Origin: Planctomycetota bacterium
GTDB taxonomy: Bacteria > Planctomycetota > UBA1135 > UBA2386
Direction of reading: 5' to 3'
NCBI GenBank assembly: GCA_050245995.1
Contig: JBFWWV010000014.1
Span: 73,893-137,892, forward strand
Length of the DNA: 64,000 bases
This document shows positions 44,698-63,599 of this stretch, piece after piece. Each line of letters begins with the position of its first letter. The stretch's first letter is position 1. The notes beneath the pieces were generated by a model. It worked only from the letters and a program-made list of their open reading frames with translations. It ran no database searches and was not told the origin of the DNA. The position numbers were made by a program, and so were the translations under genes.

Positions 44698-46326
<1,629 letters not shown>

Positions 46327-46376
46327 GATCGAACGCCAAGAGAACGACCGAGAGAGTCACCGAAGGGACCGCATCC

Positions 46377-47663
46377 ATGACTTGCACCTATCTGCCGCAT
46401 CTCAAAGACCTGCCCGCTGACCGCTTCGCCGGCGTCCGCCGCGACTATTCGCCGCAGGAGGTCGACCGCCTGCGCGGCACCATGCCGATCGAGCACTCGC
46501 TGGCGCAGCACGGCGCGCGCCGCCTGTGGGCGCAGCTGCACGGCCCGACCCACATCGCCGCGCTCGGCGCGCTGACCGGCAACCAGGCCGTGCAGATGGT
46601 CAAGGCCGGCCTGCAGGCGATCTACCTGAGCGGCTGGCAGGTCGCGGCCGACGCCAACCTGTCCGGCCAGATGTACCCGGACCAGAGCCTGTACCCGGCC
46701 AACTCGGTGCCGAACGTCGTCCAGCGCATCAACCAGGCGCTGCAGCGCGCCGACCAGATCGCGCACATGGAGGGCGACCACTCCATCAACTGGTTCGTGC
46801 CGATCGTCGCCGACGCCGAGGCCGGCTTCGGCGGCCCGCTGAACGCGTTCGAGCTGATGAAGCAGATGATCGCCGCCGGCGCCGCCGGCGTGCACTTCGA
46901 GGACCAGCTCGCCAGCGAGAAGAAGTGCGGCCACCTCGGCGGCAAGGTGCTGGTGCCGACGCAGACGTTCGTGCGCACGCTGAACGCCGCCCGCCTCGCC
47001 GCCGACGTCAGCGGCGTGCCGACCGTGCTGGTCGCGCGCACCGACGCCGACGCCGCGGCGCTCTTGACCAGCGACGTCGACGAGCGCGACCACCCGTTCC
47101 TGACCGGCGGCCGCACGTCGGAGGGCTTCTTCGAGACACGGCCGGGCATCGACCAGGCGATCGCGCGCGGCGTCGCCTACGCGCCGTACGCCGACGTCGT
47201 CTGGTGCGAGACCAGCAAGCCCGACCTCGCGCAGGCCAAGCGCTTCGCCGAGGCCGTGCGCAGGGACCACCCGAACAAGCTGCTGGCCTACAACTGCTCG
47301 CCGAGCTTCAACTGGAAGAAGAACCTCGACGACGCGACGATCGCCAGGTTCCAGCGCGAGCTCGGCGCGATGGGCTACAAGTTCCAGTTCGTGACGCTGG
47401 CCGGCTTCCACGCGCTGAACCACTCGATGTTCACGCTGGCGAAGGACTACGCCGCGCGCGGCATGGCCGCCTACGTCGAGCTGCAGCAGGCCGAGTTCGC
47501 CGCCGAGGCGCAGGGCTACACCGCCACCAAGCACCAGCGCGAGGTCGGCACCGGCTACTTCGACGCGGTCTCGCAGGCGATCAGCCAGGGCCAGTCGTCG
47601 ACCACGGCGCTGGCCGGCTCGACCGAGGCCGAGCAGTTCACGGCGGCGAAGAAGGGCGCCTGA
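46377..47663 (+). CDS. aceA: Isocitrate lyase
   Basis: [36 protein letters not shown]. Confidence 0.97.
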
Positions 47664-47694: not shown

Positions 47695-48777
47695 TCAGCG
47701 CGGAGTCGGGAGCGCGGCGAGCACGACGCCGCGCTCCATGCCGCCCGCGCGCACCCGACTGGAGACCAGCAGCACCACCTGGACCGTTCCTGGTCGCAGG
47801 CCGGCGTCGGCCTCCAGGCCGTGGGTCTTCCGGTGGACATCGAGCAGGTGGCTCTTCCACGGCACCGATTCGCGCTGCCCCGCGTACACGCCGATCTCCG
47901 CGGCATCGCTTCGGTAGGTCAGTTCCACGAACTCCTGGTCGACCTCGCCGACCTCGGCCTCCACCACAGCGGCGCCCATGGGTCCCATGTAGAGGAACTC
48001 GAGGACCCTCCGCCCGACCGCATCGGCCTGGTCGACGTACGACGCGAGCAGGTCGGCGACCGCGGGGCGCAGCGCCGGTGGGAACGCATCGGCTCCTGCC
48101 TGCGGTCGCGAGGCCCATGGCTCCTCGCCGACGACCGGCGGACTCGCCAGGACGCAGCAATGGGTGAGGCCACCGACGATCAGCAGCGTCTGCACGCTGC
48201 CCAGGACCAGCCGTGGCGGCCCGGCACAGCCGTGCCGTCCCTTGATCTCGGCGCTGAGCCTCGAGTCCTCGAGCGAGAACGACAACCGCTGCCGCGCCGA
48301 CAGCATCCAGTCGGGCACCGCGTCGCGGCTGAGCGCGGCGCCGCGATCGGGACCGAAGCCCGTGACCTGGGCGCGCAGCAGCGTGGCGCCGGTGAGCCTT
48401 CGCAGCGCGGTGCCGAACGGCGACCGCGCGTCGACCACGGCGCGCGGATGGCCGGCGAGGATCTCCCGCGCCGCCGAGCGCTCCGGCTCGGGGAAGTCGG
48501 CGAGCAGGTCCTCGGCGACGTTCGCGCGGAGTCGCGCGGCGTCCTCCGGCTCGCTCGGGTCGGTGGCCGGGACACCCGGCGCTCCTGCCGCCGTGGCCGG
48601 AACGAACTCGGCCTCGCTTCGACCTGCCGCGTCGAGCGACTCGGTCGCCGGCAGCGAGGGCCCGTCGCGGCCGGACACGGACCAGGCGACGGCGACGGCT
48701 GCAACCAACGCGACGATCCACACGGCGAGACGCACGGCCAGAGTCCACCGCGCCCCGCCTACCGAGCCTCGAGCCAC
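47695..48777 (-). CDS. Hypothetical protein with N-terminal membrane anchor (start uncertain)
   Basis: C-terminal part of ORF 47695..50352; LAVWIVALVAAVAVAW TM segment. Confidence 0.55.
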   Translation of the reverse strand: MARGSVGGARWTLAVRLAVWIVALVAAVAVAWSVSGRDGPSLPATESLDAAGRSEAEFVPATAAGAPGVPATDPSEPEDAARLRANVAEDLLADFPEPERSAAREILAGHPRAVVDARSPFGTALRRLTGATLLRAQVTGFGPDRGAALSRDAVPDWMLSARQRLSFSLEDSRLSAEIKGRHGCAGPPRLVLGSVQTLLIVGGLTHCCVLASPPVVGEEPWASRPQAGADAFPPALRPAVADLLASYVDQADAVGRRVLEFLYMGPMGAAVVEAEVGEVDQEFVELTYRSDAAEIGVYAGQRESVPWKSHLLDVHRKTHGLEADAGLRPGTVQVVLLVSSRVRAGGMERGVVLAALPTPR

Positions 48778-50114
48778 GCCCGCAGCGCGTCCTTTCCCTG
48801 CAGCAACTCCTGAATGCACCACACCCACACCGCGCCGTCGTCGCCGCGCCGGAACGTGCGGTCGACCAGCTCGGGCCGATCGCCGATCGCGTGGAGCGGC
48901 GGGAACGTCACCGACACCACCACCATCGGCGGCACCGGCAACAGCCGGCACAGGTGCCCGCCCGGCGTCACGTGCGACTCGCCGCGGAGGACCAGCATGC
49001 GCACCTCGGGATCGCCGTCGAAGACCCTGCGGATCTCGGCGCCGCAGAGCTCGTCGCGCTCGGCGTAGCGGACCTCGTCGCACAGGGTCCGGAAGTCGCC
49101 GGGTTCCATCGACCGCACCTCGGCGCCGAGTTCGGTCGCCAGATCGAGGACCGACCGCTGCGCCGCTTCGACCGACGGCTCGAAGCCGACGACGACGCGG
49201 CCGGGCGCGCGCTCGACCATTGCGCGCAGGACGCGCTGCTGCGCCAGGCGCAGCGGCCCTTCGGGCTCGTGGATCTCGCCGAACAGCACCAGCCGCGCAG
49301 CACCGGCCGCCGCCAGCAGCGCGTCGGGCTCGACCTCGGTCCAGGGACGCTTCGCCAGCGCCGCGGCGCCCTCCGCGTTCTCCCGTTGCGCGCGTTCGCG
49401 CACACGCTGCGACTCGGGCCGCGCGTCGACGGTCGCGTCGGCGGCGCGCGCGTCGAGCCGCAGAAGCGCCTCCCTGGCGCGGAAGCGCATCGACGCGCGC
49501 TCCTCGCGGAGGAAGGCCTCCATCAGCGGCCGCTGCTCCGGGTCGTCGACGCGATCGAACAGCGGCAGCAGGCGGTATCCCTGCCAGCTCGACGCCGCGT
49601 CGCCGAGCAGCGCCGAGACGTCGCGCGGGTGGATCGCGGCGCCGCCGTGCACCAGCGTCGACGCGGCCTCGATCCGCACCGGCAGCCACGCGTGCGCCAG
49701 CAGCCCTTCGACGTCGCTCCAGTCGTCCTGCGCCGACCCGGCCAGCGGCAGTCCGGCCAGCGCCCGCAGCGCCGCGATCACGACCTGCTGCGAGCGATCG
49801 CGGAGCGCGCGCCGCAGCAGCGGCAACGCCGCGGGCAACGCCGCAGGATCGCTCTCGGCGATCAGGCCGAGACAGCGCAGCGCCGCCACCTGCAGCTCCG
49901 GGTCGTCGTCGTCGAGCAGCTTGGCGATCGCCTCGACGTGCGAGGCGGTGCCCACCCACTCGAGCGCCATCAGCGCCTCGTGCCGGACCCGGGCGTCGTC
50001 CGCCGCCAGCGCCGCGACCAGCCCGCGCTCGAACGCCGTCGGCGCCGCGGCCTGGCCCGTGAGTCCGGCGCCGAGCAGCGCCGTCGTGAGAACCGCACCG
50101 AACCGTCGACTCAT
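48759..50114 (-). CDS. Exported HEAT-repeat protein with C-terminal ChaN/EreA-like domain
   Basis: Signal peptide; HEAT repeats (VRHEALMAL, LQVAALRCLG, VRIEAA); LVLFGEIH...VVVGFE...LVLRGESHV. Confidence 0.65.
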   Translation of the reverse strand: MSRRFGAVLTTALLGAGLTGQAAAPTAFERGLVAALAADDARVRHEALMALEWVGTASHVEAIAKLLDDDDPELQVAALRCLGLIAESDPAALPAALPLLRRALRDRSQQVVIAALRALAGLPLAGSAQDDWSDVEGLLAHAWLPVRIEAASTLVHGGAAIHPRDVSALLGDAASSWQGYRLLPLFDRVDDPEQRPLMEAFLREERASMRFRAREALLRLDARAADATVDARPESQRVRERAQRENAEGAAALAKRPWTEVEPDALLAAAGAARLVLFGEIHEPEGPLRLAQQRVLRAMVERAPGRVVVGFEPSVEAAQRSVLDLATELGAEVRSMEPGDFRTLCDEVRYAERDELCGAEIRRVFDGDPEVRMLVLRGESHVTPGGHLCRLLPVPPMVVVSVTFPPLHAIGDRPELVDRTFRRGDDGAVWVWCIQELLQGKDALRAWLEAR

Positions 50115-50122
50115 GCCGACGA

Positions 50123-52360
50123 TCAGAACACCTGCCGCCAGTAGACGAAAACCCCCTGCGCGTCCCAGTCGAACAGCCCGCCGTCGGCGCGATACCGGCC
50201 CATGCGGAACTCGGTGCCGAACGCGCGGCGCTCGCCGTCGAGCTGCCAGCGCACGTCGGCGCGCCAGTCGAGGAACGACACCGCGAAGTCGCCGGTCGTG
50301 CGCGTGCAGGCGCCGGTGAACTCCCAGCGCAGGTCGCCCGACGGCTGCGCAACGAAGCTGCCGTGCACGGTGTGGGTGTCGCCGTCGAAGCCGACCAGCG
50401 TCGGCACCGGGTTCGGGTCGGGGTCGAAGTAGAAGCTGGTGCGGGTCTCGCTGTCGATCCGCGCGAACGTGTAGCCGACGTCGCACGACAGCTCGCGACC
50501 GGCGGCGCCGGCGGTCACGCCGGTCGACAGCGCGTCGAGGCGGTGGTCGGCGACGTCGTTGGTGTTGCGGCGGTGCCGCACGAACACCGTGGCGTTCGCC
50601 GTGCGGCCGTCGCCGTCGTCGTCACCGCCGACGAACGCGACGCTGCCCGAGGCCTCGCGCGCGCGCTCCGGCGCGAGTTCGTGCAGCAAGGCGCCGTCCT
50701 GGCCGAAGTCGCGCCACTCGCCGCGCACGGTGATCCCGTCGCACGGCCGCCAGCGCGCGCGCGCGACCACGCCGTCGTCGCGCGCCTGGCCGCGGCGGAA
50801 GTCGCGCGGATCGCCGGGGTCGAGATCGGGCACGCGCAACCATTCGCGCGCGGCGCCGTAGCCCAGCGCCAGCTCGAGCGCGTCGAGCGCCCGCCATTCG
50901 AGCACCGCGCTGCCGTCGAACAGACGCTGCGCGGTGTGCTGGTCGACGTCGGTGTCGACCGTCACCGTGGTCGACAGCGTCGGGAACGTGGTGACGTCGA
51001 ACTGGCGCAGCGACAGGTCCTCGCGGTGGTCCCGCCAGTGCGCGTCCAGCACCAGGACCAGGGCGTCGCCGAGCGCCAGAGTCGTCGCCAGGTCGATCAG
51101 CGACGTGCGCGCGGTGCCGTCGCCGACGGCCGACGTCACGGTGTCGAACTGCGCGATGTCGAAGCCGCTGCTGGTGCCGTCGGCCACCACCCGCCGGTCG
51201 TGGTCGAACACCTGCGCGGTGAGCGCGACGGTCCACGGACCGCCGTCGCCGTCGAGCCGCAGCCGGGCGCCGGGTCCGCGCAAGCTGGTTCGCGACGTGA
51301 AGTCCTCGGTCTCGTCGAACGCCGGGTTGGCCGGCGCCGGGCGCGCGTAGCGCCATTGGTCGCGGCTGCGGTCCTCGCGCAGCAGCGCCGCCACCGCCCA
51401 GTTCCAGTCGTCGACCTCGCCGCGCAGGCCGACCTCGCCGGCAGAGGCACGCGCGCGGCGCGGGCTGTCGACACCGTCGACGAACGACTGCACCGAGACG
51501 TTGCGGTTGCCGATGCGCTGCGTCAGCCAGAACCCCTCGTCGTCGTGGCGCCGGAACGCCGCGAACGCGCGCAGCCCGGCGCCGAGCTCGACCTCGACGT
51601 CGGTGGTCCACGCCTCGGCGGTGCGGTCGACGCGGTGGAAGTCGCCGCCGCCGGCGTAGTGCAGGCGATCGCGCAGGAACGCCACGTCGACCTCGCCGAG
51701 GTCGTCCTCGCGCGCGCGCAGCCCGGCGCTCCAGCGCGGATCGCCGACGTCGTGCGCCTGCAGCGCGAGATCGTCGAACGGGGCGTCCGCGCCCACGCCC
51801 TCGCCGCGCAGCTCCAACGCGCGCAGCCGCGCGCCGGGCTCCAGGTCGACGTCGGTGGCGTAGCCGTCGCGCGAGCCGGCCACGTGCACGAACCGGTAGC
51901 CGAAGTCGACCAGCCCGCTCCAGTCGACGCCCTCTCCCCGCGCCGCCGCGGCCAGCTCCTCGGTGCGCTGCGCGTCGGCGGCCGCCTCGGGCCGCGGCAG
52001 CGCCGCCGCGTGCAGCAGGTCGCGCAGCGGGTGTCGGCCCGCGGCGGGGTCGCGTTCGCGCCCGGGGTGGCACGCGGCGCAGGCCGCCGCCTGCACCGCC
52101 GGCACCGGCGAGGGCGCCCGGTCGCCGGGCCGGCTCGCCGCCGCCACGTGGCCCGCGAGGTCGCCGTGGCACGACGTGCACGCATGCGGCCGGGTGGCCG
52201 ACTGCAGCCACAGCGCCGCGTGCGGCGACTGACGCAGGCCCTTCGCCGCGCCCGGATGGCACACCGCGCACGACGCGCGGTCGAGCGCGGCGGCGCCGCC
52301 GTCCTGCGCCATCGCCGTGCCCGGCGCCAGCAGTGCCATCGCCACCAGCCAGCGCCTCAT
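50123..52360 (-). CDS. MtrB/PioB-like outer-membrane beta-barrel with fused N-terminal triheme cytochrome c
   Basis: Signal peptide MRRWL...AMAQ; CAVCH, CTSCH, CAACH; then GLVDFGYRFVHVAGSRDGYATDVDL.PG and amphipathic beta-strands ending VYWRQVF. Confidence 0.78.
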   Translation of the reverse strand: MRRWLVAMALLAPGTAMAQDGGAAALDRASCAVCHPGAAKGLRQSPHAALWLQSATRPHACTSCHGDLAGHVAAASRPGDRAPSPVPAVQAAACAACHPGRERDPAAGRHPLRDLLHAAALPRPEAAADAQRTEELAAAARGEGVDWSGLVDFGYRFVHVAGSRDGYATDVDLEPGARLRALELRGEGVGADAPFDDLALQAHDVGDPRWSAGLRAREDDLGEVDVAFLRDRLHYAGGGDFHRVDRTAEAWTTDVEVELGAGLRAFAAFRRHDDEGFWLTQRIGNRNVSVQSFVDGVDSPRRARASAGEVGLRGEVDDWNWAVAALLREDRSRDQWRYARPAPANPAFDETEDFTSRTSLRGPGARLRLDGDGGPWTVALTAQVFDHDRRVVADGTSSGFDIAQFDTVTSAVGDGTARTSLIDLATTLALGDALVLVLDAHWRDHREDLSLRQFDVTTFPTLSTTVTVDTDVDQHTAQRLFDGSAVLEWRALDALELALGYGAAREWLRVPDLDPGDPRDFRRGQARDDGVVARARWRPCDGITVRGEWRDFGQDGALLHELAPERAREASGSVAFVGGDDDGDGRTANATVFVRHRRNTNDVADHRLDALSTGVTAGAAGRELSCDVGYTFARIDSETRTSFYFDPDPNPVPTLVGFDGDTHTVHGSFVAQPSGDLRWEFTGACTRTTGDFAVSFLDWRADVRWQLDGERRAFGTEFRMGRYRADGGLFDWDAQGVFVYWRQVF

Positions 52361-54000
52361 CGGAACAGGAACCGCGAGTGGTTGCTGCCGTGCACCTCGG
52401 TGTGGCAGCGCAGGCAGTCGGTGAACACCGCGCCGATCGTCTGGTCGTGGAACGCCGGGAAGTCGCCGTGGCACGAGAGGCAGTTCTGCTGGCTGTTCGG
52501 CTGCCGAAGCAGACGCCGGTTGGCGCCGCCGTGCGGCACGTGGCAGGCGACGCAGCCGTCCCGCCGCCCGGCCTGGTGCGCGAACACGAACGGGCCGGCG
52601 TGGCGCGGGTGGCAGTCGGCGCAGACGCCCTGCGTGAGGTGCAGGTCGCGGATGCGCTGGCGGTCCCGGTGCACGTCGTGGCACGAGCTGCAATGCATCG
52701 TGCCTTCGGGCACCGGGTGGTGGTTCGGCTGCCGGAACTCGGCAGCGACGTCGGCGTGGCAGCGCGCGCAGCTCCGCTCGGCGTCGTCCCGCACGTGGAC
52801 CGGGTCGGCGCCGTGCAGCGGCCCGTGGCAGTCGGCGCAGCCGACGTCGGCGCGCGCGTGTGCGCCGTGTGCGACGCCCCGCAGCGCCTCGTCCTCGCGA
52901 TGGCACTGCATGCAGGCCTGCGCCTGCACCGCGGCCGGCGCGCCGCCGAGGCGTTGCACCAGCTCGCGGCGACCGCCGCGCTCGGCGTGATCGAGCGCGC
53001 CGGCGTGGCAGCTGCCGCAACCGCGGTCGAGGGGCACGTCGGGACCGCCGAGCAGGTGGTGCGTGGAGCCGGGCATCGTGAACAGCGCCGGCACGTGGCA
53101 TGCGGCGCACGCGCGGTTGGTGGCCGCCGCGCCGGCCGTGTGCGGCGCGCCGGCCGCGGTCGCCGCGTCCCGTTCGCGCGGCTCGTGCACGCGGTGGCAG
53201 GTGGCGCAGACGACGCCCTCGGCGAGGTACGGCGCGCGCCGCTCCGCCCAGTGGAAGCGCACCGCGTCGACCTCGGGGTGGCAGGAGCGACAGGTGGCGA
53301 CGCCATCCGCGGCGCGGTCCGGCCGCGTGATCAGGCGCGCCTCGCCGCGGGCGTCGGCGTGCAGGACGCCGTGTCCGTGGCAGCGCTCGCAGCCGTCGCC
53401 GCGCGCGTCGGCGGCGAGGTCGCGGTGCGCGCTCTGGCGCAGCAGCGCGTCGCGGATCGGGTGACACGCGGCGCACTCGGCGCTGCCGGCGGCGTCGCTG
53501 ACCGCGTCCGCGTGCGCGCGCGCCGCGAAGCGCACGCCGGGCAAGGGACCCGCGTCCGGCCGCCCGTGGATCTCGTGGCACTCGGTGCAGGTGCGGCCCG
53601 ACTGCAGCAGCCCCGGCAGGTCGCCGCCGTGCCGCTCGATCTGATCCTGGTGGCAGCGCGCGCAGAACGCGGTCTGCGCCGCCGGCGCCAGCGCCTTCGG
53701 CATGGTGATCGCGCCGAGGTCGTTGTCGGCCGACTCCGCGTGCGCGCGACCGGGCCCGTGGCAGGTCTCGCAGCCCGGCAGCGCCGCGTGCTCCAGCACG
53801 ACCGCGTGCGCCCCCGACAGGAAGCGGCGGTGCTGCCGTTCGTGGCAGCGCGCGCACTCGGCGGCGCCGACGTAGTCGCCGACGCGCGGGAACGGCGCCG
53901 TGTCCTGCGCGCGCGCCAGGGTGCCCGCCGCCAGCAGCAGACACGATGCGGCGAGCCGGCGCACGAGGCGAGGCAGGACCGACGCGGCTGTGGACGACAC
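52357..54000 (-). CDS. 18-heme c-type cytochrome, extended MtrA/DmsE family
   Basis: GGGAG RBS, GTG start, signal peptide; 18 CxxCH counted; ends GPFVFAH...CVACHVPHG...CLRCHTEVHGSNH as in DmsE/MtrA. Confidence 0.9.
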   Translation of the reverse strand: MSSTAASVLPRLVRRLAASCLLLAAGTLARAQDTAPFPRVGDYVGAAECARCHERQHRRFLSGAHAVVLEHAALPGCETCHGPGRAHAESADNDLGAITMPKALAPAAQTAFCARCHQDQIERHGGDLPGLLQSGRTCTECHEIHGRPDAGPLPGVRFAARAHADAVSDAAGSAECAACHPIRDALLRQSAHRDLAADARGDGCERCHGHGVLHADARGEARLITRPDRAADGVATCRSCHPEVDAVRFHWAERRAPYLAEGVVCATCHRVHEPRERDAATAAGAPHTAGAAATNRACAACHVPALFTMPGSTHHLLGGPDVPLDRGCGSCHAGALDHAERGGRRELVQRLGGAPAAVQAQACMQCHREDEALRGVAHGAHARADVGCADCHGPLHGADPVHVRDDAERSCARCHADVAAEFRQPNHHPVPEGTMHCSSCHDVHRDRQRIRDLHLTQGVCADCHPRHAGPFVFAHQAGRRDGCVACHVPHGGANRRLLRQPNSQQNCLSCHGDFPAFHDQTIGAVFTDCLRCHTEVHGSNHSRFLFR

Positions 54001-54031
54001 GGACAACTCCCAGAGGCGACCGGGTCGGGGT

Positions 54032-56479
54032 CTAGCGGGCAAGCGCGCCGTCCGCGATCCAGCGGCGGATCCAGTCGCGGCCGCGCTCGTCGAGCAGGGA
54101 ACCGCTGAGCGGCATCTGCTGCCCGACCGGCGGCAGGCGATCGACCAGCTTGCGGTAGAGCAGCGACGCCTCGGGGTCGCCGGGCACCAGCAACGGCAGC
54201 GCAAAGCCGCTGTCGCCCGGACGCGCGAGCTGCCGCACCGTGTCGCAGCTGTAGCCGCCCTCGCGGCTGCCGCTCATGTGGCACGCGCCGCACTTCTGCA
54301 GCAGCAGCGGTCGCACGTGGCGGGTCCAGGTGATGCCGCCGTCGGCCGGCGGCGCGTCGGCGGCATCGCCGACCAGGATCGCGCCCGCCAGCAGCGGCAG
54401 TCGACCGAAGGCGCCGCCCGCGAGCAGCGGCTCGGGCACTCCGTCGCCGTCGGTGTCGGCGGCGCCGTCGCCCGGCGTCTCGCCGCCGTCCTGCCACTCG
54501 GCGAACGCGAGCGCGGGCCGCAGCCGCTGCAGCAGCGCGGTCTGCGCCGCCGCCGCATCCGGCGCGTCGGCCTGCGCCGCCAGCCGCAGCGCGGCCAGCA
54601 GATCGGCCAGCAGCCGCGGCGTGTAGCGCGCGAAGCCGTGGCCCAGGTCCTGCTGGAAGTGCCCGGCGGGGTCGCGGTGCCGGAGCAGCCGCTCCACCAG
54701 CCGCAACGCCGCGTCGTCGACCTCGGGCAGCGCCACGACACGGGCGGCCTCGAGCATGCCGGCGGTCAGCACCGCCTGGTCGCCGAGCCCCGCGGCACCA
54801 CCGGCGCCGCCGTCGGCGAGGTCCGCGAACTCGAACGCGGCCCCGTCGGGTCCGACCAGGCGTCGCGCCGCGAACGACGCGGCCATGCCGATGACGTCCT
54901 CGACGCCGACACCGTCGTACTCGAGGTCGGGCTGCAGCAGCCAGAGCCGCGTGAGCGCCGACAGCGCGCGGCCGGTCGCCGCGGCGGTGGCGATCGGCAC
55001 GGGGCCGTCGTTCTCACGGCGGTGGAACAGCGCCCCCGAACGGCGATCGAGGTGCAGCGCCACCAGGTTGCGGAAGCTGGCGCGCGCGAGGTCCTCGCCG
55101 GGCGCCGGCGGCGGCGGCACCGACGGCACCTGCTCGAGCGCGCCCTGGTCGATCCAGTCGGCGACCATCTGCAGCTCGGTCGGCGACAGCTCCTGGCCGA
55201 TGCCGGGCGGCATGCGCGGGAACGGGAACCGCGGCGCGGTGAGGATCTCGTAGGCGAAGCTCCGGGTGTGGTCGCCCGGCACGACCATCGGCAGCTGCAG
55301 CTGCCGCGTGCGGTTGCCGCCCTGCAGGAACAGCGCGTAGGTGTCGATCTGGAAGCCGCCGGTCGGGAAGCCCAGGTGGCAGTTCTGGCAACGACCGACG
55401 ACCAGGTTGCGGATCTCGCCGTCCCAGCTCAGCGCCGGCTCGGGCGGATCGACGGGCTCGGGCGGCGGGAACGCCGTCTCGAACACCGCCTGGACCGCAG
55501 CCGACGGGTTGGCGTCGCCCGCGAACCACGCCAGCTCGGCGACCGCGTCGAGCACGGCGGCCAGCCCTTCGAGGTCGCTGGCGCCGTCGAGCACCCGGTA
55601 CAGCGCCGGCGCGCCGGTGCCCTGGTCGATCGCGTCGAACTGCGCCGGCAACCAGCGCGGCCCCTGCGCCGGGTCGTAGTCGGCGAGGTCGCCGAACGTG
55701 CCGAGCAGCGCGCCGTCGGTGCCGAGTCGCGTCACGAGTTCCTCCTCGGTGGCGAGCACCTGCTCGACCAGCAGCAGCCCGAGCAGGCCGGCGTCGGCCG
55801 TCGCGCCGGCGAGGCCGCCGCGCCGCTGCGCCAGCAGGTTGCTGGCGGCGAGCACGCGCGCCTGCATCATGCCGGCGACGTCGAGCAGCCGCACCGACGA
55901 CGAGCCGACGTCGCGCGTGCGCCAGCGCGCGGGGTCGCCGGCGAAGGCGACCGCGGCGCCCGGCGCCGCGGCGAGGTCGGGCGAGCCCTCGGCCCATGGC
56001 AGCAACGGCTGCCGCACGCCGCTGGGGACCGGCGCGCCGGCGAACGCGGCCAGGCGGACGGTCTCCGCCGCCAGCGTCTCGTCGACGTTGCGGCCGTCGC
56101 CGTTCGCGTCGATCGGCGCGTCGTCGGCGCGCGCCAGCCGCAGCACCCGCTGCGAGCCCAGCAGGTCGGGACCGTGACCGGCGCCGAGCGCCCGGCTGCG
56201 CAGGTGGTCGAGCGCGGCCGACGCGAGCTGCAAGGCCAGCGCCGGGTCGGTCACACCGCCCGCGGCGGTCGGCTGCAGCGGCGCCGTGGCGCTGGCCCCC
56301 GCGGCCAGCAGCAGCGCCCCGGCGAGCGCGTCGGCGTCACCGGTCGTGCGCGCGGATTCGACGCGCGGGGCGACCACGGGGATCGAAGCCGCGGACGTGC
56401 GGCCGGCGCCCGTGTCGCACGCGACGAACAGACAGGCGACGACCACCGCGCGGGCGGCGGTGCGCAGGGGATGGTGCAC
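54032..56479 (-). CDS. Large lipoprotein with two planctomycete-type monoheme cytochrome c domains
   Basis: Lipobox LFVAC; RCQNCH...VVPGD...RMPP...WIDQGA and KCGACH...VPGDPEASLL...QMP...WIADGA. Confidence 0.8.
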   Translation of the reverse strand: MHHPLRTAARAVVVACLFVACDTGAGRTSAASIPVVAPRVESARTTGDADALAGALLLAAGASATAPLQPTAAGGVTDPALALQLASAALDHLRSRALGAGHGPDLLGSQRVLRLARADDAPIDANGDGRNVDETLAAETVRLAAFAGAPVPSGVRQPLLPWAEGSPDLAAAPGAAVAFAGDPARWRTRDVGSSSVRLLDVAGMMQARVLAASNLLAQRRGGLAGATADAGLLGLLLVEQVLATEEELVTRLGTDGALLGTFGDLADYDPAQGPRWLPAQFDAIDQGTGAPALYRVLDGASDLEGLAAVLDAVAELAWFAGDANPSAAVQAVFETAFPPPEPVDPPEPALSWDGEIRNLVVGRCQNCHLGFPTGGFQIDTYALFLQGGNRTRQLQLPMVVPGDHTRSFAYEILTAPRFPFPRMPPGIGQELSPTELQMVADWIDQGALEQVPSVPPPPAPGEDLARASFRNLVALHLDRRSGALFHRRENDGPVPIATAAATGRALSALTRLWLLQPDLEYDGVGVEDVIGMAASFAARRLVGPDGAAFEFADLADGGAGGAAGLGDQAVLTAGMLEAARVVALPEVDDAALRLVERLLRHRDPAGHFQQDLGHGFARYTPRLLADLLAALRLAAQADAPDAAAAQTALLQRLRPALAFAEWQDGGETPGDGAADTDGDGVPEPLLAGGAFGRLPLLAGAILVGDAADAPPADGGITWTRHVRPLLLQKCGACHMSGSREGGYSCDTVRQLARPGDSGFALPLLVPGDPEASLLYRKLVDRLPPVGQQMPLSGSLLDERGRDWIRRWIADGALAR

Positions 56480-56884
56480 GGAATCAGCTGCGAGGGAGGA
56501 GCAGGTGCGCAGCATACCTACGCACCCGGACCCCTGGCGACCCGCCCTCGGCCGGAGCGCCGCCGCCGGCCGCCGTCCTCGGCGCACAGGCCGCGGATGC
56601 GTGTCGCCGCAACCCGTGCTCGCCGCCCCGCACGACCCGTGCGCCGGTCCGCGTCTTGAATGTCGATCGACGCAGCGGGACACCGCACCGCCGCAAACCG
56701 GCTGCGCGGTGCAGCAACTCCGATCCGACTCGCGACCGTCGGCCCGAGACAAAAGGGGTGCGCAGAATGGCGGAATGAAACGCGCGGCGACATTTGCGAA
56801 GTGATATAGATGCGGGCAGTCGAGCTTCATTGGCCCGACCGCTGCTCCTCACTGCAGCTTATTACCTCACCAAATGCAGAAGCA

Positions 56885-57863: not shown

Positions 57864-60800
57864 TCAGGGCAGCAGGACGACGTCGCGGGAGTTGCTCATG
57901 CGGCCCGATCCGGTGGACTTCAGCTCGAACAGCTGCAGCGGCAGGTGCAGCCCCCACAGCTGCGCCAGCCCCGGCGCGACCATCGGCACCTCGATCGATC
58001 CGGTCGGCACGAACCCCGTCGACAGCACCACCGCCTGGCTGTGGTCGATCAGCAACACCATGTCGATCGGGAACACCACCGTCAGGTCGAGGTAGTCGCG
58101 GCGCAGCGAGTAGAGCAGGCCGTAGAAGCTCGACGGGTCGGTGGTGATCGTGAACGGCACCGGCTTCTCGCCGGTCCACGCGGTCGGGAAGCGCACGTCC
58201 GGCATCCCGCCGGCGACCGGCACCAGCGACGAGCCGATGCCGACGTTGGTGGCGCCCGGCGTCACGTCGCACTGCTGCACGATCGAGCCGCCGGTCAGCT
58301 CCAGCTCGTCGATCGCGCCGCGCGAGAGGTAGCTGCCCGCGCCGTTGGCGAAGCGCAGCCCCGGGTCGCCGGCGAAGTCGCACGTCTGGATCGCCACGCG
58401 GTCGGAGTCGTCGACCAGGAGCCCGGTGACGCCGAGCGCCGCCCGGACCTGCAGGCCGTCCAGCACGATGACGTTGTCGCAGTTCAGCACCTCCATGCCG
58501 AACGGGCTGGTCGGCGTGCCGATCTCGAGGTCGTACAGCGCCAGGTCGAACTCGCTGGCCGGGATGTCGCGCACCACCAGCTTGCCGAGCGACGTGTCGA
58601 TGCGGACCGGGCCCGAGCCGTCGGGCATGATCCGCACGGCCTTGGTGATCGTGAACGCCGGGTAGGTGCCGGCCTGGACGACGATCTGGCCGCCGGGGCC
58701 GGCCGCCGCGACCGCGGCGGCGATGTCGGGGTAGCCGCCGTTGGTTCCGACGAACCAGGTGTTGCCGACCTGCTGCGGCCACGGCCGCGCGAAGTCGCTG
58801 CCGAGCTGGCGGGGCTCGCCGTGCAGCAGCACCTCCTGCAGCCGGTACGTGTAGCGCGTCGTGTCGACGGTGTTGAAGTCGGTCGCCTGGTAGGCGCCGC
58901 CGGTGCTGGGCGACCCCAGCGGGACGAGCGGGCTGTTGGCGATCTCGACCCACGGGCCGCCGGGGCTGGTCGCGCGCTGCACCTCGAAGCGCGCCACGTC
59001 GACCTCGGCGTCGGTCGCGAACGCGAGCTCGGCGCGGTGGATGGCCGGCCGCGCCGAGAAGCCCACCAGCGCGGTGCGCTCCGGCGGCAGCCAGTCGATC
59101 ACGCCGCCGCCGTCGTCCTCGAACGTCGGGCCCGCGAACGCGCCCGACTCGTTGACGAAGGCCACGACGCCGGCGCCGGTCGACCGGACGTTGAACGTCG
59201 CGGCGCCCGCCTCGAACCGCGCGTAGCGCACCTGCGTCGCGACCGCGCGGTCGAGGTGCAGCAGGCACGAGCCCGGGGTCGGGTCCCCGTCGCGGAAGGT
59301 GCCGGCGCGCAGGTCGCGCGGGCTGGCCGCGATCGTCGCCGCCGCGCGGATCCGCACGCCCGCCGGCCCCATGTTCGCGAACGCGAAGTTCATCGCCTCG
59401 ATCGCGCCGTCGACCAGCACCGCGTAGCCGCCGCCGGGCGGACCGTCGATGGTGGCCGGCGCGTCGAAGGTCCCGACCATGCGCAGCAGGCCGCCGGCCG
59501 GCACCGTCATCACCGCCGCCGCGCCGAGTGTCAGCGCGCCGCCGGCGCCGATCGACAGCGTGCCCTGGACGTCGATGGTGGCCGCAGCGACGCCGAGCGC
59601 CCGACCGCCCAGGTCGAGCTGCGCCGGCGCCAGCACGCGGACGGCGGCGGCCGTGGCGTCGATGTCGGTCGCCACCGAGCGCACGCCGGCCGCGACCTCG
59701 ACCTGCGCGAACGACAGCGCGCCCGTCAGCGACTTCAGGTCGCCGGTGCCGTCGAAGAACACCGTGCCGTTCGTGGGCGCGAAGGTCGCGCCGGCGGTGT
59801 AGTCGCCGCCGCACCGGAGGTCCGGCACGCCGATCGGGTCCGCCGTCACGGCGTCCAGGAACACGTCGCCATCGACGTCGAGCACCGACCCCGCGGCGCC
59901 GCGCAGCGCTCCGGTCGCCGCGAGCAGGTCGCCCTGCACGTGCAGGTTCGCGCCCGCCACCAGCGACAGGGTGCCGCTCAGGAGGTTCAGCGACGCCACC
60001 AGCACGCCGCCCTGCACCGCGACCAGCCCCACCGTGTCGATGTCGATCCCGGTGAACAGTCCCGCCCCCGACACGGCGCCGTCACCGACCATGCGCACGG
60101 CGCCCGCGCCGCCGATCCCGGGCGCGATCGCGCCGGCGTTGGTCAGCGACTTGCTGACCGCGACGACCGAGCCGCTGTCGACGGCCAGCGAACCCACGGG
60201 ACCGATGTCCAGGTTGCCGCGCACCTCCAGCAGCGACGACGGCGCGGTGACGGCGCCGCGGACCAGCAGGTCCTGTTCGAGGATCACGTCGGCGGAGCCG
60301 AACGTCACCTGGGAGCCGGCGTCGACGATCAAGGAGACCAGCCGCAGCTGCGGCGAGGACAGCACCTGCGGCCCGAGGCCGTTCATCTCCATCTCGCCGC
60401 TGGTCGGCAGGAACTGGGGATTGGAGGACCAGTTGGCGCCGCAGCGGATCAGCGCCGGCGGCGACACCACCACGTTGCTGGTGGCGAAGTCGATGTTGCC
60501 GCGGACGTCGAGCACGCCGGGACCGACGTTGTCGACGCTGAGGCCCTGGAAGACCGCGTTGCCCAACCCGGTCAGCGATCGCACCTGCAGGCGTCCGCCG
60601 GTCTGGGTGATCTGCCCGGCCACGACGAGCCGCGTGACGACGTACGGCCCGTTGGTGAACGTCACCTGCGGCAGCTGGATCGACGGCTGCACGTCGATGG
60701 TGCCGGTGCCGACGAAGTGGAACGCGCTGCCGGGCGGCAGCACCAGGGTGCCGTCGACGTCGAGACCGCTCGACAGCTGGTGCGGCCCGGCGCCGGCGGC

Positions 60801-63233
60801 CAGGACGCCGCCGGCCGCGACGTGCAGGTCGCCCTGCACGGTCGCCACCGCGGCGCCGATCTGCAGACCGCCGCTCACCGTGGCGCTGGCGCCGAGCGCG
60901 ACCGTCGTGGCGCCCGCGGCCGTGAGCAGGCCGGCCGAGCCGATCGTCAGCGGGCCGCTGACCTGCACGCCGGTCCCGACCGCCGACAGCTGCCCGAGCA
61001 CGTCCAGGCCGCCCTGCACGAGCACGTCCTGCGGCAGCGCCACGCTGGCGCTCGCGGCGACGCGCAGGTCGAACCAGGGGATCGCCGGCATCGTGACCGT
61101 CTGCGCGCCCACCCCGTCGAACTCGACCAGGCCCGAGGCCGGCGCGAACGACGCGTCCGACAGCCAGTTGCCGCCGCAGCGGATCGTCGCCGGCGGCTGC
61201 GTCGTCGGCGCCGACAGCTGGATTCGCACGTCGCGCCCCACGTCGAGCAACCCCGTGGCCACGTCGACCAGGCCCGTGCCCTGCATCGTCGCGTCGCGCT
61301 GCACCTCGCAGGACCGCACCGCCAGCACACCCGAGATCTGCACGAGGTCCTGGCCCACGGTCAGCGCGTCGACCTGGTAGTCGCCGCCGGCGAACCGCAC
61401 GTTCGGGATCGGACTCGTCGGCACGACGTCGACCACGCCGCCGCCGTCGAACACGGCGATCTGGCCGGCCGGCATCGCCAGCGAGCCCGCCACCAGCAGC
61501 GAGCCGGTCAGCACGTGGTTGCCGTTGCCGAGGGTCACGGCGCCGTCGACGTCCGTGTCGCCGTCGACGTCGAGGAACGCCTGCGGCGCCTGCACGGACC
61601 CGCCGACCACGAGGCCGGCGTGCGCGCGGACGCGCAGGCAGTTGGGCGCGGTGACGCTGCCGGACACGAGCATCGGCCCGAAGCACTCGATGTCGCCGCC
61701 GCCGCTCTGCAGCCCACCCTGGACGTCGAGCGTGCCGCTGGTCCGCACCGCCAGCGGGGTCGCCACCTGCGCCGTCGGCGCGATGCGCAGCGAGTTCCAG
61801 GCGAACGCCGGCATGGTCACCGACTTGGGCCCCACGCCGTCGAACACCACCAGGCCCGAGGTCGGCTGGAACGACGCGTTGGCCGTCCACGAGCCGGCGC
61901 AGAACACCACCGACGGCGGCGTGTTGACGACCGCGACCGTCTGCCACACCACGTTGCCGGCCACGTCGAGCAGGCCGCCCGTGAAGTCGCGCACCGAGTT
62001 GCCGCTCAGCGCGCAGTTGCCGTTCACCGCGCAGCGGAACACGTTGAGGTCGCCGGCGCCGACCGCGTGGGTCAGGTCCCCGCCGACGGTGGCGTCGAGG
62101 ATCGTGTAGCTGGAGCCGGTGATGCGGACGGCGGGCAGCACGTTGAAGGGCGCGATCGTGATCGTGCCGCTGCCGTCGAACTCCAGCGTCGCCGACGCGG
62201 GCGCCGCGAAGCCGCCGGCGATGCCGACCGAGTTCGAGAACCGGTGCACGCCCGCGCCCACGCTCAGGAGCCCGGTCACGAAGAACGTGACGTTGCCGTC
62301 GACGTCGGCCACGGCGTTCGGCAGGTCGATGATGCCGGCCGAGGTGACGCCGTTGCGGATGCGCAGCTGGGTCACCGAGTTGCCCCGCAGTTCGGAGCCG
62401 ATCGTGATGCCGGCCGGCTGCGTCAGGTCGACCACCGCGCCGTTGACGCGCAGGTCGTTGCGCATGCGCAGGGCGCCGGCGACCCGGAGGTCGCCGTTGT
62501 GCGTGAGCCCGAACACGTTCTCGATCTCCAGGCCGCTCCACACCGTGCCGGGGGCGACGTTGGCGATCGCGGCGCCGCTGCCGACGAACCACACCGCGCC
62601 GCTGGCGGGCTGCCAGCTGGCGTCGCTGGTCCAGATCGCGCCGAGCCGGATCAGGCTCGGCGGCGCCGTCACGGGCGCGGTGGCCTGCACCGTGACCGAG
62701 CCCTGCGACTCCAGCAGGCTGCCCGGTCCGCCGAGCAGGCCGGCGCCGCGGAAGGTCGCCGCCACCGAGGCGCGGCACGACTGGATGGTGATCGCGGCCG
62801 AGCCCGGCTGCTGGTCCAGCGTCGCCAGCTGCGCGTCCACCGTGTACGGCCCGGCGACGACGCGCACGTTCTCGAGCAGACCCGTGCCGGACGTCGCGAT
62901 CGCGCCCGAGCCGGTGAGCCGCAGTTCGCCGACCACCGAGCCGGCGCAGGCGATGCTGCCCTGGATCGACAGCGGGAAGCCGACCGGCGCCGACAGGCTC
63001 GCGCCGGCCTGCACGGTCAGATTACGGCACGCCGCCGACGGCGCGCCCGTGGTGTCGGGCTGGTTCGCCGCCGGCGCGACGATCGCGTCCGTCAGGACGC
63101 TCGGAACGCCCGCCGACCAGTTGGACGCGTCGTTCCACGCAGTCGACACCCCACCCGTCCATGCGGTCTGGGCGGTGAGGTGCGTGGCGAAGACGGAGAG
63201 GAGAACGAGGACCGGGGGGAGGATCCTGTGCAT
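57864..63233 (-). CDS. Giant (about 1790 aa) secreted beta-solenoid / adhesin-like repeat protein
   Basis: Signal peptide MHRILPP...LTAQ; WTGGVSTAWNDASNWSAGVP cap; Gly/Val-rich beta repeats; five copies of an internal motif. Confidence 0.8.
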   Translation of the reverse strand: MHRILPPVLVLLSVFATHLTAQTAWTGGVSTAWNDASNWSAGVPSVLTDAIVAPAANQPDTTGAPSAACRNLTVQAGASLSAPVGFPLSIQGSIACAGSVVGELRLTGSGAIATSGTGLLENVRVVAGPYTVDAQLATLDQQPGSAAITIQSCRASVAATFRGAGLLGGPGSLLESQGSVTVQATAPVTAPPSLIRLGAIWTSDASWQPASGAVWFVGSGAAIANVAPGTVWSGLEIENVFGLTHNGDLRVAGALRMRNDLRVNGAVVDLTQPAGITIGSELRGNSVTQLRIRNGVTSAGIIDLPNAVADVDGNVTFFVTGLLSVGAGVHRFSNSVGIAGGFAAPASATLEFDGSGTITIAPFNVLPAVRITGSSYTILDATVGGDLTHAVGAGDLNVFRCAVNGNCALSGNSVRDFTGGLLDVAGNVVWQTVAVVNTPPSVVFCAGSWTANASFQPTSGLVVFDGVGPKSVTMPAFAWNSLRIAPTAQVATPLAVRTSGTLDVQGGLQSGGGDIECFGPMLVSGSVTAPNCLRVRAHAGLVVGGSVQAPQAFLDVDGDTDVDGAVTLGNGNHVLTGSLLVAGSLAMPAGQIAVFDGGGVVDVVPTSPIPNVRFAGGDYQVDALTVGQDLVQISGVLAVRSCEVQRDATMQGTGLVDVATGLLDVGRDVRIQLSAPTTQPPATIRCGGNWLSDASFAPASGLVEFDGVGAQTVTMPAIPWFDLRVAASASVALPQDVLVQGGLDVLGQLSAVGTGVQVSGPLTIGSAGLLTAAGATTVALGASATVSGGLQIGAAVATVQGDLHVAAGGVLAAGAGPHQLSSGLDVDGTLVLPPGSAFHFVGTGTIDVQPSIQLPQVTFTNGPYVVTRLVVAGQITQTGGRLQVRSLTGLGNAVFQGLSVDNVGPGVLDVRGNIDFATSNVVVSPPALIRCGANWSSNPQFLPTSGEMEMNGLGPQVLSSPQLRLVSLIVDAGSQVTFGSADVILEQDLLVRGAVTAPSSLLEVRGNLDIGPVGSLAVDSGSVVAVSKSLTNAGAIAPGIGGAGAVRMVGDGAVSGAGLFTGIDIDTVGLVAVQGGVLVASLNLLSGTLSLVAGANLHVQGDLLAATGALRGAAGSVLDVDGDVFLDAVTADPIGVPDLRCGGDYTAGATFAPTNGTVFFDGTGDLKSLTGALSFAQVEVAAGVRSVATDIDATAAAVRVLAPAQLDLGGRALGVAAATIDVQGTLSIGAGGALTLGAAAVMTVPAGGLLRMVGTFDAPATIDGPPGGGYAVLVDGAIEAMNFAFANMGPAGVRIRAAATIAASPRDLRAGTFRDGDPTPGSCLLHLDRAVATQVRYARFEAGAATFNVRSTGAGVVAFVNESGAFAGPTFEDDGGGVIDWLPPERTALVGFSARPAIHRAELAFATDAEVDVARFEVQRATSPGGPWVEIANSPLVPLGSPSTGGAYQATDFNTVDTTRYTYRLQEVLLHGEPRQLGSDFARPWPQQVGNTWFVGTNGGYPDIAAAVAAAGPGGQIVVQAGTYPAFTITKAVRIMPDGSGPVRIDTSLGKLVVRDIPASEFDLALYDLEIGTPTSPFGMEVLNCDNVIVLDGLQVRAALGVTGLLVDDSDRVAIQTCDFAGDPGLRFANGAGSYLSRGAIDELELTGGSIVQQCDVTPGATNVGIGSSLVPVAGGMPDVRFPTAWTGEKPVPFTITTDPSSFYGLLYSLRRDYLDLTVVFPIDMVLLIDHSQAVVLSTGFVPTGSIEVPMVAPGLAQLWGLHLPLQLFELKSTGSGRMSNSRDVVLLP

Positions 63234-63599
63234 GGGAGTTCGGGGCGAACGGCCTTTTCCCTGGACCGATCGCAGTGGGACTTGGGGCTCTCGAGACGGC
63301 AGGGCTTCTACGCGGCGCGACGACGGACGGGTCGAACGATCCTGGGAGGGGTCGTGTCGACTCGCGATGACTCGTCGCGGGCAATCGACCACGTACCGCT
63401 ACGAGGGCCTTCTAGTCGGCGACCGCACGGTGGCATCGCACGAATTCGTAGACGATGCCGACGGCTCTCCTGGTTCCGTTCGTTGCGAAACGCCGCAGCG
63501 CGCGCACGCCGCGGCGTCGATCGTCGTCGCTGCACCGACACCGCGGCCGGCGCGCCGACGTCGCTGCGTCGACGCCCGCGGCGGCGGCGGGTCAGCCGG

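Follow-up and report, generated by a model that had tools for sequence, protein, structure and literature searches.

MtrA-type conduits are the best understood route of electrons across an outer membrane, and their parts are employed in bioelectronics. The genes of the mtr operon are arranged in the order mtrC-mtrA-mtrB; in Shewanella, crossing the rest of the periplasm relies on soluble shuttles. Here, we describe a cytochrome of the MtrA/DmsE family with 18 heme-binding motifs, encoded together with a barrel protein on a 64,000-nucleotide stretch of DNA (hereafter, the window) from a planctomycete genome assembly (GCA_050245995.1, contig JBFWWV010000014.1, positions 73,893 to 137,892). The comparisons reported below support well a relationship of its eight N-terminal hemes to hemes 1-4 of this family.

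The nearest described system is MtrA-MtrB of Shewanella (6R2Q); MtoAB, PioAB and DmsEF are of the same kind. The ten hemes of MtrA span 80 Å, with the protein's C-terminal half inside the 26-stranded MtrB barrel and heme 1 about 20 Å into the periplasm (PMC7198977). According to a survey from 2014, all MtrA, MtoA and PioA proteins known at that time contained ten hemes (PMC4245776). The system of the window shares with MtrAB a core that passes the family model TIGR03508 and superposes on MtrA, as well as a predicted 26-stranded partner nearest to MtrB. It differs in having 18 hemes instead of ten, by way of two additional N-terminal units, and in a barrel protein with three hemes of its own. 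The succession of a lipoprotein cytochrome, a periplasmic cytochrome and a barrel resembles mtrCAB, but the first gene codes for a diheme PSCyt1 lipoprotein and not for an MtrC/OmcA decaheme, and the barrel scores below the Pfam MtrB_PioB model.

Other described systems share single features with this locus. The periplasmic cytochromes of PCC3 conduits in Fe(II)-oxidizing bacteria carry 21-27 hemes and have been suggested to reach across a larger part of the periplasm than MtrA does (PMC5566968, PMC10734462). As in the window, a long, repeat-built multiheme cytochrome is encoded there beside a porin gene. However, PCC3 is described as non-homologous to Mtr or Pcc, with heme counts that step by three (21, 24, 27; PMC5566968, PMC10734462), and neither its many-heme extracellular cytochrome nor its conserved 5-helix inner-membrane protein was seen here in Pfam scans of the neighboring genes. 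An outer-membrane barrel covalently joined to a c-type heme domain is known from GM18_3465, a protein of the Pcc system in Geobacter sp. M18 that was introduced as the first putative porin-like multiheme cytochrome of the outer membrane (PMC4245776), and from Cyc2, which has one heme and a smaller barrel of about 17 strands (PMC10654088). In contrast to both, the barrel examined here is MtrB-like with 26 predicted strands, its heme domain appears to copy the unit of its partner, and a separate 18-heme cytochrome is retained. The three hemes, the 26 predicted strands and the separate partner do not fit a fused cytochrome-porin of the Cyc2 type. The repeated unit, which corresponds to hemes 1-4 of MtrA, is similar to NrfB, STC and c554, with NrfB and c554 among the weaker sequence or fold matches; hemes 1-5 of MtrA have been superposed on NrfB (PMC7198977). 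Those are free-standing small cytochromes, whereas here a single polypeptide contains repeated copies of the unit.

A recent preprint reports variation of the heme number within the MtrA family, where motifs can be gained by fusion; its available text does not describe tandem tetraheme units (10.1101/2025.05.29.656830). Our literature search revealed no description of an MtrA series with 14, 18 and 22 hemes, although supplementary tables might still list such proteins, and a heme-bearing MtrB-type barrel was not found described for the Mtr family. The string "Planctomyc" does not occur in Baker et al. 2022 (PMC8805035).

The decaheme core and two additional tetraheme units

The G+C content of the window is about 75%. 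The cytochrome gene lies within an open frame that spans 52357..54204 on the reverse strand and contains exactly 18 CXXCH and zero CX3-4CH motifs. The GTG at 54000 is the likeliest start, given the sequence GGGAG 7 nt before it and the end of the upstream gene at 54032. The product begins with a Sec-type signal peptide, called by eye from the sequence, which ends ARA-QD at residue 31; the mature protein has about 28.7 residues per heme. The following features were assigned:

52357..54000, reverse strand: gene for the 18-heme MtrA/DmsE-family cytochrome (547 aa, 18 CXXCH, TIGR03508 match)
53908..54000, reverse strand: signal peptide, residues 1-31 (cleavage ARA-QD predicted from sequence; helix 8-28 in the AlphaFold2 (AF2) model)
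53512..53892, reverse strand: tetraheme unit A, hemes 1-4, residues ~37-163 (decaheme-profile, TIGR03508 and distal-His evidence)
53146..53511, reverse strand: tetraheme unit B, hemes 5-8, residues ~164-285 (profile scores, TIGR03508, distal His)
52360..53145, reverse strand: decaheme core, hemes 9-18, residues ~286-547, whose first four hemes form unit C (TIGR03508, VIA-align to 6r2q_A)

The original prediction, made from the DNA letters alone, had proposed a 4+4+10 arrangement of hemes, and all peptides quoted in it occur in the 18-heme frame. The distances between consecutive CXXCH motifs (those between units in brackets) are 28, 36, 25 (38) 28, 33, 28 (33) 30, 35, 25, 23, 26, 23, 23, 24 and 22. 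The pattern of the first four motifs thus occurs three times, in agreement with the proposed layout.

Hemes 9-18 are best read as an ordinary MtrA/DmsE decaheme core, as had been suggested. The NCBIfam model for DmsE-family decahemes, TIGR03508, matched residues 296-542 over profile positions 3-257 of 258, with 234.6 bits against a cut-off of 192.2. The protein goes beyond the ten hemes of that family, since the core is complete and eight further hemes are located N-terminal to it. MtrA (6r2q_A) was the best sequence match of the cytochrome in the PDB (phmmer, E 5e-24) and also the sole significant Foldseek match of its AF2 model (E 6.9e-6, TM by target 0.57). Model residues 291-543 were placed by VIA-align onto residues 62-329 of the MtrA chain (Z 9.5, rmsd 5.3, 229 residues; runner-up Z 5.6). 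The AF2 model, obtained with 83 homologs as input, had a pLDDT of 81.9 and a pTM of 0.55; pLDDT exceeded 90 in the N-terminal two thirds and was 40-65 for residues 430-547. Judged by its sequence, the 18-heme cytochrome is a derived long form of the DmsE/MtrA family and not a decaheme.

The relationship between the units was assessed both with single sequences and with profiles. BLASTP aligned A with B at 35% identity over 109 residues, B with C at 36% over 106, and A with C at 27% over 106. Since heme motifs inflate single-sequence scores, these similarities were compared to shuffles with Cys and His fixed. The A-B pair was clearly above the shuffles (z 4.4, 0/500), the B-C pair was marginal (z 2.0, 22/500), and the A-C pair was not above them (z 0.0, 245/500). 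The A-C signal therefore consists of the Cys/His scaffold plus family conservation, and the case for this pair rests on profiles.

Unit profiles were cut as slices from the alignment of 83 homologs and compared pairwise. In register, they scored 148.5 (A-B), 108.6 (A-C) and 109.1 (B-C) over 103-110 columns; the scores against slices of hemes 11-18 were 41-77. Hemes 3-6 against hemes 7-10 scored 118.2, and slices taken out of register still recovered the in-register local alignment. Against a decaheme profile of 95 sequences, units A, B and C each matched hemes 1-4 with scores of 157-170 (169.5 for A and 157.2 for B). When the genome was searched in six frames with TIGR03508, three matches fell within the gene, one to profile positions 3-257 (162 bits), one to positions 1-108 (52.1 bits, unit A) and one to positions 1-137 (39 bits, unit B). 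The three units also have in common conserved non-motif His residues at +12, +6 and +7/9/14 from the proximal His of hemes 1-3. The complete offsets of these putative distal ligands are +12, +6, +7, +3 in unit A and +12, +6, +9, +3 in unit B. The +6 His after the second motif coincides with the position reported for MtrA, where this residue serves heme 1 as distal ligand (10.1101/2025.05.29.656830). Units A and B are thus well supported by their sequences as homologs of the unit that carries hemes 1-4 in the MtrA/DmsE family, and the proposal that hemes 1-4 and 5-8 repeat the module of hemes 9-12 is upheld by the profiles, the TIGR03508 scan and the distal-His pattern. Each of A, B and C matched hemes 1-4 of the family, a check that had been suggested with the original prediction.

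A tree of 110 units and 112 columns was constructed from random picks (fixed seed) of 17 of the 83 18-heme proteins and 25 of 51 decahemes, plus six divergent 18-heme proteins. Many of its forks are unresolved, because only 112 columns were available. In the principal clade of 18-heme proteins, the A, B and C positions each made up a clade of their own (SH-aLRT 97, 97 and 98), and the unit copies are therefore older than this clade. By its place in the tree, each unit position shows as an old, separately conserved copy. The sampled decaheme units were located, with one exception (24/25), across a branch of support 92. Proteins with 22 hemes have three units in common with the 18-heme protein P0086, the two outer ones with support of 99 and 98, and possess a fourth unit in addition.

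A 14-heme gene of a close relative (L016:7800-9251) begins with a unit composed of the front half of A and the back half of B, joined in frame. It looks as if one four-heme period had been lost in register, although the contig comes from a long-read assembly and the hybrid may be an assembly error.

The barrel partner and the conserved gene cluster

The stop codon of the cytochrome gene (TGA, 52357-52359) shares bases with the ATG of the barrel gene (ATGA). The two neighbors of the cytochrome in the cluster are as follows:

50123..52360, reverse strand: barrel-partner gene, 745 aa, with signal peptide, three-heme domain, helix and 26-strand beta-barrel (ATGA overlap, AF2, Foldseek)
51986..52297, reverse strand: three-heme domain of the barrel protein, residues ~22-125 (3 CXXCH and 3 distal His, profile scores)
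54032..56515, reverse strand: probable diheme lipoprotein gene, 827 aa, with PSCyt1-like domains (PF07635, E 7.6e-9; lipobox LFVAC), 31 nt before the 18-heme gene

The AF2 model of the barrel protein (pLDDT 83.3, pTM 0.71) displays 26 strands at residues 144-744. MtrB (6r2q_B) was the best Foldseek match (E 9.9e-14, TM by target 0.59); TonB-dependent receptors, which have 22 strands, ranked lower, and MtrB itself has 26 strands (PMC7198977). A complex of barrel residues 21-745 with cytochrome residues 290-547 was predicted with a score of 0.77, while the best of three controls reached 0.00. The mark used for this score was attained by 58 of 80 solved complexes and by 2 of 110 mismatched pairs. 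Contacts agreed between runs by at least 47%, the partner pLDDT was at least 74, and the predicted contacts involve alternate strand residues all round the barrel. Since MtrAB is a solved structure, this pass may only mirror the likeness to MtrAB. The core is accordingly only predicted to be sheathed by the barrel encoded next door.

The heme domain of the barrel protein, absent from the original prediction, has three CXXCH motifs and three distal His, which are invariant in 24 homologs. In register, its profile scored 63-71 against the three units; the score was 80.2 for decaheme positions 56-147 and 43-49 for controls. The best PDB sequence match was to residues 57-157 of MtrA, and the distal His offsets start with +12 and +6, as in the units. 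By these comparisons, the domain is a shortened copy of the tetraheme unit of the cytochrome.

The lipoprotein occupies the position that mtrC has in its operon. Its start and lipobox were inferred by eye from the sequence. It carries two CXXCH motifs in PSCyt1-type domains, each with a downstream MP motif, which would supply a Met ligand. An Atlas search with the middle, scaffold part of the protein produced weak leads (cosine 0.80, TM ~0.5) to six-hairpin glycosidase-like models, and no family was assigned.

The cluster is conserved in related Planctomycetota. In all 16 related loci from species-representative genomes, a barrel homolog with exactly three CXXCH motifs is located directly downstream of the cytochrome. 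The lipoprotein gene is upstream in 11 of the 16; in two of the other five, the contig end is too close to judge. The cytochrome has 18 motifs in 14 of these loci, the others being L006, which is cut by a contig end, and L016 with its 14-heme hybrid. More distant relatives display other combinations of heme numbers in the cytochrome (wire) and in the open reading frame (ORF) on the barrel side:

L036, L038, L039: wire of 22 hemes, barrel-side ORF with 8 hemes (the 22-heme gene of L039 is broken by one TAG)
L037: wire of 22 hemes, barrel-side ORF with 4 hemes
L040: wire of 18 hemes, barrel-side ORF with 4 hemes
L041-L043: wire of 14 hemes, ORF of 680-760 aa without heme motif, assumed to be the barrel

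The 8-heme barrels match units A+B across both units with E of ~1e-18. The joint rise of heme numbers in wire and barrel is an observation and not a statistic, as the lineages are few and related.

The 22-heme cluster of L036 also codes for an 11-heme protein with a fused membrane domain of the cytochrome b561 type (PF01292, CbcL-like; L036:300-2870, reverse strand) and a c554-like tetraheme protein. Judging by their predicted products, these genes together would give a complete route from the inner to the outer membrane. An 11-heme ORF with the same spacing was present in L037.

Pfam scans of the neighboring genes in the window revealed no further multiheme protein or membrane cytochrome. In the genome as a whole, 25 frames with at least five CXXCH motifs were counted, including two with 23 and one with 16 (locations C2:119520-126904, C16:81346-83706, C5:173840-181883 and C1:112903-129377); some may be spurious in this high-GC DNA. 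One frame of the OmcA/MtrC family (240.3 bits with its neighbors, cut-off 209.3) lies on another contig, unlinked to the operon.

Upstream of the cluster on the same strand, a gene for a secreted protein of 1842 aa (57864-63392, reverse strand) had no Pfam match at E <= 1e-4 and is not kept beside the cluster in related loci. Convergent to the cluster are the glyoxylate-shunt genes for malate synthase and isocitrate lyase (44698-47660, forward strand), which recur in L002 and L004 with 68-83% identity. They are separated from the barrel gene by a HEAT-repeat gene (48759-50114, reverse strand) without counterpart in related loci. A set of genes for arginine biosynthesis, interspersed with unrelated genes, occupies 8788-29393 on the forward strand. 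It comprises genes for a repressor, semialdehyde dehydrogenase, amino-acid kinase, aminotransferase, ornithine carbamoyltransferase, argininosuccinate synthase and lyase, and ArgJ.

Heme numbers of homologs and their distribution

A word-indexed homolog search, restricted to lengths of 300-958, returned 120 matches at E <= 1e-5. An exhaustive search of 50%-identity representatives gave 3150 matches at E <= 0.001; only the top 150 were considered, and 147 of them were beyond the word-indexed set. The numbers of proteins by CXXCH count were:

Word-indexed search (n=120): 8 motifs, 1 protein; 10, 24; 11, 2; 12, 1; 14, 6; 16, 1; 17, 2; 18, 80; 22, 1; 24, 1; 26, 1
Exhaustive search (n=147, among the matches listed): 10 motifs, 77 proteins; 14, 8; 18, 4; 22, 3; fewer than 10, 36; 12, 4; 25-26, 4; 38-42, 11

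Two of the six 14-heme entries from the word-indexed search (P0078 and P0081) resemble truncated 18-heme proteins. Proteins with 14, 18 and 22 hemes have the spacing 28-35-25 one, two and three extra times ahead of an unchanged core. The survey for variants with 10, 14 and 18 hemes, which had been proposed as a check, thus recovered all three, and the series extends to 22 with one N-terminal unit per step. Together with the profiles, the TIGR03508 scan and the module tree, this series supports well the proposed modular elongation by N-terminal tetraheme copies. Since heme number varies in the relatives (10, 14, 18 or 22 in the wire; 0, 3, 4 or 8 in the barrel), length is an evolvable trait. 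The 11 giants with 38-42 hemes (~1000 aa; for example P0135, P0142, P0148, P0152, P0155, P0163 and P0173) have a uniform spacing of ~23-25 and appear to represent another design for very long heme wires. A frame with 32 hemes was also observed in a metagenome-assembled genome of Anaeromyxobacter (L017:7926-10352).

All named sources of the 83 homologs with 18-heme architecture are Planctomycetota; the source names on the long forms are solely Planctomycetota, Planctomycetes or "bacterium". Searches of genome samples from four phyla, with Pseudomonadota outside these samples, gave the following results:

Planctomycetota, whole-protein query, E <= 1e-20: 27 of 401 genomes matched
Planctomycetota, units A+B (260 aa), E <= 1e-16: 20 of 386 genomes including that of the window (G000), with matches covering both units, in at least 7 families
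Phylum of the L018 genome (Desulfobacteraceae), units A+B, E <= 1e-16: 1 of 401, with a single unit covered
Phylum of the L017 genome (Anaeromyxobacter), units A+B, E <= 1e-16: 0 of 401
Phylum of the L021 genome (Acidobacteriota), units A+B, E <= 1e-6: 131 of 401, with a best E of 5.2e-15 and none at 1e-16

The 15 longest open frames fetched from the Acidobacteriota sample all had at most 11 CXXCH motifs, and no two-unit form was found in the three samples of 401 genomes from other phyla. Among the genomes searched, the long forms were found only in Planctomycetota. A link to a wide periplasm would draw on this distribution, which is confounded by descent; shared descent, instead of envelope shape, may account for it.

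Proposed role and rival explanations

The locus probably encodes a planctomycete porin-cytochrome conduit of the MtrAB type, whose cytochrome has become longer step by step. By homology and by the complex prediction, the core (hemes 9-18) would sit inside the 26-strand MtrB-like barrel. The two tandem copies of hemes 1-4 stand at the N-terminus, the end that projects into the periplasm in MtrA; their tandem order is evident from the gene. At the heme pitch of MtrA, eight extra hemes would add ~65-70 Å of periplasmic reach, and addition of four at a time may keep the alternating parallel and perpendicular heme pairing in register. The copy of the unit on the periplasmic N-terminus of the barrel suggests a second, short heme arm or a docking site. 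The diheme lipoprotein, first in the operon, is a likely third redox partner given its position and conservation; it and the three-heme arm of the barrel are candidate docking or branch points. The lack of an MtrC-type gene in the operon and the probably Met-ligated, high-potential hemes of the lipoprotein would recall electron uptake of the Mto/Pio kind. A direction of uptake only is countered by the relatives that tie the conduit to a CbcL-like quinone module, used either way.

Several observations weigh against this assignment. The barrel of the window has no match to Pfam MtrB_PioB (PF11854) at E <= 0.01, and just one of 24 aligned barrel homologs has one. Four relatives do exceed the cut-off of this model of 23 bits (L001, 26.4; L037, 25.9; L040, 32.8; L036, 23.8). 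A TIGR03509 match is also absent from the window barrel, and a profile of the 24 homologs left MtrB in the PDB unmatched at E <= 1, its heme domain alone matching MtrA. The AF2 model of the cytochrome has a pTM of just 0.55, with the low pLDDT of 40-65 falling in the part embedded in the barrel, and the single-sequence similarity of A and C does not exceed that of shuffles. The operon includes neither an MtrC/OmcA gene nor an inner-membrane quinol dehydrogenase, and a CbcL-like protein of the L036 type was not found in the window's own genome by tblastn (E < 1e-4). Finally, the 18-heme gene was not found in any of the five sampled genomes of the window's own family, and is therefore not a general trait of this lineage.

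That the 18-heme frame is a misassembled duplication or a pseudogene is hardly credible. The units are just 27-36% identical as protein, the frame is open, and the gene DNA contains no long repeats, only short diverged ones of at most 50 nt and 64-78% identity; one weak repeat family returns with the period of a unit, at 372 and 381 nt. In the 83 homologs (33-65% identity), every one of the 18 motifs is invariant, as are 16 further His, so that the architecture is unchanged among them. Logan contigs from activated-sludge runs of two other studies (X3 and X4) had 0 differences over the matched parts of the gene, including the A/B junction; positions 53001-53174 lie outside the coverage by these two independent runs. 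The run with a contig that spans the gene was not counted as independent, because it is possibly the source sample. Read alignments contained many short joints with sides of 20-23 nt, which were regarded as noise in a metagenome of 75% GC. The original prediction had considered a misassembly unlikely since the copies are diverged, and the diverged DNA repeats, the homologs and the identical outside contigs agree with this view. Very little probability is also left for a soluble periplasmic cytochrome that works for an enzyme of the periplasm, in the manner of NrfB with NrfA, and is not threaded through the barrel. Its N-terminal units do resemble NrfB and the heme packing of the c554 type, and the nearby genes include no surface decaheme. 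However, the gene overlaps that of the MtrB-like barrel by ATGA and adjoins it in all 16 loci, the core scores above the cut-off of the DmsE/MtrA model and can be aligned to MtrA from one end to the other, and the complex prediction passes against its controls.

A more serious rival, though still an improbable one, holds that the extra hemes form an electron store (capacitor) or a branching hub, with units A and B packed beside the core or beside the three-heme domain. The barrel has its own heme domain, so that two heme arms would meet at the periplasmic mouth; heme numbers of wire and barrel rise together, and packing side by side fits this equally well. The pTM of the cytochrome model leaves room for other geometries between units, and the capacitor idea has already been raised for the many-heme cytochromes of PCC3 (PMC10734462). 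On the other hand, the units are strictly tandem and located at the end which points into the periplasm in MtrA (PMC7198977), and the number of residues per heme is as in wire-type cytochromes. The predicted contacts of the core name no residue of the three-heme domain (22-125), although residues not named are merely uncertain. Beyond a conduit lengthened in steps, the system could, tentatively, be a length-adjustable, two-armed envelope wire of Planctomycetota. Both arms would bridge a wide periplasm to a membrane-anchored partner without soluble shuttles, and the number of units would be tuned to envelope width.

Taken as a whole, the original prediction is partly supported. Its evolutionary part is well supported; its physical and ecological part, a longer wire that could suit the enlarged planctomycete periplasm, remains an inference. 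Present annotations such as "decaheme" or "cytochrome c3 family" mask the extra units. Since the natural series of 10, 14, 18 and 22 hemes is made from one reusable four-heme unit, the influence of wire length can be tested directly; the apparent loss of one period in L016 serves the same purpose. The series would offer ready-made extension units for engineered conduits, and a barrel bearing its own copy of the unit would be a second design idea. For the biology of the group, these findings make it likely that the largely uncultured Planctomycetota of landfill and sludge habitats take part in electron exchange with the cell exterior.

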